Sequence record: BH153104.1
Source of the DNA: a phage
DNA length: 356 nucleotides
Reading direction: 5' to 3' (one strand)
Of the stretch, positions 1 through 356 are shown piece after piece (position 1 is the first letter of the stretch; every line of letters begins with the position of its first letter). The notes beneath the pieces are model-generated. The model did not search any database. It was not told the DNA's origin and saw only the letters and a program-made list of their open reading frames with translations. The translations under genes and the position numbers were made by a program.

Positions 1-57
1 TTAGTGTGTATGTGTGCACCAATTTAATAAAAATGTTCCATTACCAACAAATCAGAA

Positions 58-216
58 TCAGCCGCGACCATAGTCGTATTCATAATATGTTCCTCGTTCA
101 ATCTCATATTGTTTCAGGTCTTCTAAAAGTTCATCCACTGCTTGTTTCAGCACATGACGCAGCGTAAAGTAATAGCTTTCATCAAATTCTATTTCCGCGC
201 AGGAATAGAGCGAAAC
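58..216 (-). CDS. Hypothetical protein, C-terminal segment in the -1 frame relative to the 189..356 segment; ends at TGA 60..58; lacks its own start codon, so most likely the continuation of the upstream segment
   Basis: Reverse-complement translation from 189 down to 61 gives EFDESYYFTLRHVLKQAVDELLEDLKQYEIERGTYYEYDYGRG, then TGA at 60..58, with a second in-frame TGA at 54..52. This frame is open back to 216 (preceding codons VSLYSCAEI), where it is closed by TAA. It contains no ATG, and the only GTG/TTG-type codon is a GTG deep inside with no Shine-Dalgarno-like sequence before it. Coding signature is strong: 17 of 43 codons begin with G, second positions are A-rich, and Glu/Asp/Lys/Tyr dominate. 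Codons such as CTG, GCG, CGT and CGC fit a bacterial (gammaproteobacterial-like) gene. Confidence 0.65.
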   Translation of the reverse strand, partial: VSLYSCAEIEFDESYYFTLRHVLKQAVDELLEDLKQYEIERGTYYEYDYGRG

Positions 217-356
217 TTACACTTAACGGTAGTATCAGTGAGTCGCAAAACGACCATCATCCGAACTTCTTCATTCTCTTTGGAATACCATACATCAACG
301 GAGATCTTATTCTGGCAGCAGACACCGTAGATGATAAAGTGGTATTCGACGAAGTT
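189..356 (-). CDS. Hypothetical protein, upstream segment; 5'-partial (continues beyond position 356); probably the same gene as the 58..216 segment, separated from it by a frame break
   Basis: Reverse-complement translation from 356 down to 192 is open for 55 codons: NFVEYHFIIYGVCCQNKISVDVWYSKENEEVRMMVVLRLTDTTVKCKFRSIPARK, followed by TAG at 191..189. The composition is protein-like, mixing hydrophobic and charged residues. About 16 of 55 codons begin with G, a moderate coding-type enrichment. No start codon or ribosome-binding site can be assessed because the 5' end lies outside the window. Product unknown; no family recognised from memory. Confidence 0.55.
   Translation of the reverse strand, partial: NFVEYHFIIYGVCCQNKISVDVWYSKENEEVRMMVVLRLTDTTVKCKFRSIPARK

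Follow-up and report, generated by a model that had tools for sequence, protein, structure and literature searches.

A reading-frame break in a short phage record, probably a one-base error in a chimeric copy of phage RB49 DNA

The reading-frame break in sequence record BH153104.1 is very likely (probability of about 0.88) a one-base deletion error in a chimeric copy of sequence from phage RB49, and not a biological feature. The record, whose full 356 nucleotides are referred to herein as the window, joins part of the RB49 gene ORF037, on the minus strand, to a short piece of a second RB49 gene, inh. Both of these parents were identified, the lesion was placed exactly, the homologues of the broken gene are intact, and GATC stands at the join and at the end of the window. 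Judging from these comparisons of sequence, we infer that cloning, sequencing or editing, and not events in a living phage, gave rise to the lesions. The features of the window are collected in Table 1.

Table 1. Features of the 356-nt window
Feature	Position	Strand	Evidence
Part of RB49 ORF037 (codons 24-105), broken by a deletion	58..306	-	98% identity to NC_005066 24662..24967; PHROG matches
1-nt insertion in a homopolymer (plus-strand A5 vs A4)	29..33	-	Alignment with RB49 and relatives
1-nt deletion causing the frame break	200..201	-	Pairwise and 11-way alignments
Premature TAG in the shifted frame	189..191	-	Translation, alignment
4-nt block swap (TTTT vs AAAA, minus strand)	247..250	-	Column invariant in 10/10 relatives
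inh fragment, sense strand (DLILAADTVDDKVVFDEV)	303..356	+	54/54 identical to RB49 100987..100934
GATC present in both parents; join of RB49 24662..24967 with 100987..100934	303..306	.	Sequence comparison

Source of the window and position of the frame break

A megablast search of a phage collection returned 59 records, all of them from Krischvirus, the RB49-like T4-type phages. The best match pairs window 1..306 with RB49 (NC_005066) 24662..24967 at 98.0% identity, and the two differ over this length only by two 1-nt indels and one 4-nt block. There are no single-base substitutions relative to RB49 in about 350 aligned nt. At most 86% of the window is covered in one place, and the whole window occurs in none of the 59 Krischvirus records; in all 59, the matched stretch is either annotated as two hypothetical proteins or carries no annotation. 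The broken gene is ORF037 of RB49 (RB49p037, NP_891608.1), which lies between genes 46 and 47 and is annotated as one CDS of 105 aa. The protein is assigned to phrog_15856, a PHROGs family of unknown function, and it matches the profile of that family over positions 1-105 (E = 3e-72). In RB49, ORF037 and the start of RB49p036 share 26 nt. The window retains this arrangement: ORF036 begins at ATG 83..81, before ORF037 has reached its stop (60..58), as is also seen in RB49 and in metagenome contigs; the upstream neighbour of ORF037 is not in the window, owing to the chimeric junction.

Translation of all three minus-strand frames, together with an ORF listing, demonstrates that the break is present in the record and reproduces the two protein-like segments in different frames that the initial annotation had described. 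Frame 1 reads NFVEYHF...KCKFRSIPARK (in full, NFVEYHFIIYGVCCQNKISVDVWYSKENEEVRMMVVLRLTDTTVKCKFRSIPARK) and ends at TAG 191..189. In the frame offset from it by -1, a TAA stands at 219..217; from 216 this frame is open as far as TGA 60..58, and it reads ...AEIEFDESYYFTLRHVLKQ...YDYGRG or, over a longer stretch up to the same stop, ...AEIEFDESYYFTLRHVLKQAVDELLEDLKQYEIERGTYYEYDYGRG. The two frames share a 28-nt overlap, 189..216. In profile searches against phrog_15856, positions 19-59 were matched by the upstream fragment (E = 2e-18) and positions 59-105 by the downstream one (E = 4e-28). Because both fragments match one PHROG profile at adjoining positions, the break is no chance pattern. Further, these matches independently place it at codon 59/60 of a single gene. 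The upstream segment proved to be only partly what it had been taken for: 306..189 is indeed the gene, but the codons from 356..307 (NFVEYHFIIYGVCCQNK) are antisense inh. That is, the first 17 codons of this segment derive from another locus and not from the broken gene.

Alignments with RB49 and its relatives bear out the proposal that one gene has been broken by a single-nucleotide indel inside the overlap, and they put the lesion between positions 201 and 200. On the minus strand, RB49 and its relatives read CCTCGCGCGG; the window has CCT followed directly by GCGCGG, one C being gone. Viewed on the plus strand, a G is absent between c200 and a201. Putting the C back at 200/201 gives ...FRSIPRAEIEFDE..., the same as RB49, and over a longer stretch ...KCKFRSIPRAEIEFDESYYF..., an exact match to that phage; the repaired junction peptide is IPRAEIEFDE. 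In the intact gene, the bases that form the premature TAG fall within GAA ATA GAA (E-I-E). With the one C restored, window 306..58 encodes residues 24-105 of RB49 ORF037, identical except for a change of VEKR to VVLR. As it stands, the window copy differs from the RB49 gene in being frameshifted at codon 59/60 and in lacking the first 23 codons, in whose place is antisense inh. The specific repair favored by the initial annotation, the return of a lost A to the A-run at 192..194, did not survive the alignment. It would yield IPARK-IEFDE (IPARKIEFDE), a peptide found in no relative, and it is thus ruled out, whereas the loss of a C from CCTCGCGCGG fits.

Two other ways of reading the frame break can be set aside at this point. 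Programmed -1 ribosomal frameshifting, or transcriptional slippage, could in principle yield a full-length ORF037 protein from a downstream frame that is -1 to the upstream one and overlaps it for a short distance. However, the window was found to hold no X XXY YYZ heptamer at any point or in any phase, as had been stated at the outset, and no relative has a two-frame arrangement: the gene occupies a single frame in the 10 aligned genomes and in three metagenome contigs. A slip anywhere in the overlap would also give a peptide unlike the conserved IPRAEIE. With neither a slippery heptamer nor a homologue in more than one frame, recoding is ruled out, and its probability is negligible. The same may be said of two separate genes, one ending at TAG 191..189 and another starting nearby, an idea for which the stop codon itself is the sole argument. 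GTG 153..151 is the earliest start codon in the downstream frame, in agreement with the earlier observation that none plausible lies near the break; the two fragments fall on the one shared profile; and the homologues are all single proteins of 105-107 aa. These results rule out the two-gene reading.

Conservation and predicted structure of ORF037

The alignment set comprised RB49 and nine further Krischvirus genomes with 85-98% identity to the window (ten genomes, making an 11-way alignment with the window itself). One uninterrupted CDS of 318-324 bp spans the site in nine of the ten, RB49 included, and the tenth, the unannotated OZ035808, has an uninterrupted translation at the same coordinates. 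The 105-aa gene is intact in three metagenome contigs as well, where it has the same gene context. Whether homologues run unbroken over the junction had been posed as a check on the initial annotation; they do so in the ten genomes and the three contigs alike, as single proteins of 105-107 aa, and no homologue in the data searched ends at the TAG position. Natural variation among the ten genomes consists of point substitutions, the sole indel being an in-frame 6-nt insertion in phage Brandy. Pairwise dN/dS values for the gene among the relatives range from 0.07 to 0.53, and thus ORF037 is a real gene under purifying selection. Exact-match scans of IMG/VR, JGI metagenome contigs and GTDB genome contigs returned no copy of the deletion variant and no copy of the ORF037-inh junction; the intact variant at 200/201 is present in viral contigs. 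Absence from these databases does not by itself prove that the deletion is missing from every phage.

A Pfam search of ORF037 gave sub-threshold noise only, and a search of 5.8 billion proteins recovered only two ORF037 clusters at 90% identity, of 105 and 107 aa, both Krischvirus-like. The family therefore appears, by this sampling of protein sequences, to be confined to Krischvirus. AlphaFold2 confidently (pLDDT 79.8, pTM 0.69) predicts a helix, three-strand, helix fold, in which a pair of short helices and a sheet of three strands are followed by a long helix at the C terminus. Comparison of this model with the PDB revealed no significant structural neighbour (best E = 0.06). Nor was there a significant neighbour in BFVD (best E = 0.005), where the named matches were uncharacterised or hypothetical phage proteins. 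Within the window, no promoter-like or terminator-like sites were found, and an Rfam scan gave chance-level matches only. We also note that the 26-nt overlap of the ORF037 stop with the ORF036 start (window 58..83) is present in every genome examined, and that other neighbours in the 46-47 cluster overlap as well.

Other lesions and the join to inh

The deletion in ORF037 is not the only departure of the window from its relatives. The A-run at 29..33 has five bases in the window and four in all aligned relatives, and this insertion frameshifts ORF036: from its start at ATG 83..81, the window copy reaches TAA 26..24 after 19 codons, compared to 186-190 aa for the intact protein. The truncated product is MNTTMVAADSDLLVMEHF, then Y and the stop; a profile search matches this stub to phrog_16328. 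At 247..250, the swap of AAAA to TTTT, an exact complement of four bases, turns the conserved VEKR into VVLR. The deletion, the A5 insertion and the AAAA/TTTT swap each occur in 0/10 of the aligned genomes. Two adjacent genes, ORF037 and ORF036, thus carry two frameshifts within 170 nt and zero ordinary substitutions.

The deleted C belongs to the alternating run CTCGCGCGG. G+C-rich, self-complementary alternating runs (CGCGCG) and homopolymers are classically prone to base-calling errors and compressions. The frame break probably came about when a C was dropped from this run during base calling, and the extra base in the A5/T5 homopolymer at 29..33 would be a second reading error. The window resembles known base-calling indel errors in the contexts of its two indels, an A4/A5 homopolymer and CGCGCG. 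It differs from them in the AAAA/TTTT complement, which is outside that class; this swap would be a third error, though not of the typical base-calling type. We sought a natural or standard base-calling mechanism for the swap at 247..250 and found none. Inversion between the flanking GTCG/CGAC inverted repeat was rejected, as it would yield CTTTT and not TTTTG.

Mainly on account of this swap, we keep a small probability for a deliberate or in-silico alteration, such as an edited or test record assembled from pieces of RB49, into which the indels and the complemented block had been planted. Four bases exchanged for their exact complement are hard to obtain from chemistry or biology, and the remainder of the record is a perfect copy of the reference. 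An editor working arbitrarily, however, would be unlikely to choose an inh fragment that runs from GATC to GATC, which is a digestion product, and both indels sit in contexts prone to base-calling error, namely a homopolymer and a CG-alternating run.

The right-hand part of the window, 303..356, shows 100% identity to the opposite strand of RB49 at 100987..100934, within inh, which is annotated in RB49 as a minor head protein and inhibitor of the prohead protease. Its plus-strand translation, DLILAADTVDDKVVFDEV, is part of Inh. The two RB49 parents of the window are therefore 76 kb apart and in opposite orientation. At the join, the window has ggaGATCtta; the corresponding RB49 sequences are ggaGATCccc for ORF037 (GATC at 24964..24967) and aacGATCtta for inh. 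The RB49 bases immediately following window position 356 (…gaagtt) are again GATC, and the inh piece is exactly one GATC-to-GATC fragment of 58 bp, at whose boundary the record stops. Given a GATC density of 0.0058 per nt in the RB49 stretches examined, the chance of both coincidences together is ~3e-5. Position 1 of the window is not at a GATC, the nearest in RB49 being 25 nt upstream; thus, an insert boundary is suggested at one end of the record only. The presence of a single GATC at the join, and not GATCGATC, points to sticky-end ligation without fill-in. In this respect the window differs from the products of fill-in Hi-C, which would leave GATCGATC.

The inh segment also has matches outside of the phage collection. 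Matches of 96-98% identity to window 303..356 occur in six E. coli chromosomes, each inside a gene for a hypothetical protein. In E. coli ETEC1717 (NZ_CP122876), the match lies among prophage-region genes (tail tip protein, recombinase), and the gene looks near-identical to RB49 inh for ~60 nt further upstream of the match. This similarity suggests that an inh segment may have been exchanged between lytic Krischvirus phages and temperate phages.

Origin of the record

The explanation that we favor is that two GATC-ended RB49 fragments were ligated in vitro, in the manner of a Sau3AI, MboI or DpnII digest. The ligated pieces would be part of the 328-bp ORF036/ORF037 fragment and the whole 58-bp inh fragment, and the setting could be a shotgun clone with a co-ligated small fragment or a 3C-type library; the ligated record would then have been read at about 1% error. 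Chimeras produced by such GATC cutters share with the window the joining of non-adjacent, oppositely oriented segments at one common GATC, as well as a small fragment bounded by consecutive GATC sites; for the window, the enzyme and library type are deduced from sequence alone. RB49 was reportedly first characterised by Desplats et al. (J Bacteriol 2002) through random sequencing of small cloned fragments, and a link between those fragments and this record is only a lead. Two facts speak against an artefact: the AAAA-to-TTTT swap is atypical of base calling, and no GATC marks the left end of the window.

Of the two outcomes that the initial annotation had left side by side, a pseudogene and an indel error, the latter is clearly favored and the former is unlikely. 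The window is otherwise RB49 with several private lesions, and it is the combination of zero substitutions, two indels, a 4-nt swap, a GATC chimera and absence from the searched genomes and contigs that leads us to this preference. The lesions are nonetheless truly in the sequence, and they could be read as those of a real RB49-derived phage, such as a mutant or a laboratory stock, with pseudogenes at ORF037 and ORF036 and a large inversion that joins ORF037 to inh through GATC microhomology. ORF036 and ORF037, which are genus-restricted, may well be dispensable; their loss might therefore be tolerated, and lethality is no argument against a viable mutant phage. Even so, we regard such a phage as improbable. 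It would have accumulated four rare events in 356 nt with zero point substitutions relative to RB49, its lesions are found neither in 59 phage genomes nor in three large contig collections, and purifying selection acts on the ORF037 family. Moreover, a genomic inversion would not predict that the inh piece should stop precisely at the next GATC, as it does.

The comparison with frameshifted pseudogenes in phage hyperplastic regions leads in the same direction. What the window shares with them is a 1-nt indel that breaks a small accessory gene, located in a variable region. It differs in having no substitution load, in a lesion that is present in no relative or environmental contig, and in the co-occurrence of that lesion with an in-vitro-type junction. 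A search for relaxed constraint around the lesion, in the form of extra substitutions, found none relative to RB49 over the aligned length. That the window is a true genomic segment, in which a ~76-kb inversion fuses a truncated ORF037 to inh and frameshifts inactivate both ORF036 and ORF037, is very improbable. If it were true, ORF036, ORF037 and an intact inh would all be dispensable, and large inversions would be tolerated in a T4-like genome.

The main consequence is one of quality control. An annotation of this record should claim neither a pseudogene nor two genes nor a recoding site, and the record deserves a flag as a chimeric, error-bearing copy of RB49 sequence. More generally, a frame break in a short isolated window should first be compared with close relatives; here, one alignment located the lesion, disproved the A-run repair, and exposed both the second frameshift and the chimeric join. 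RB49 itself carries ORF037 as an intact and conserved gene of 105 aa in its early region. As read from the genome sequences, the overlaps in the 46-47 intergenic cluster to which it belongs would fit a series of small early genes whose translation is coupled.
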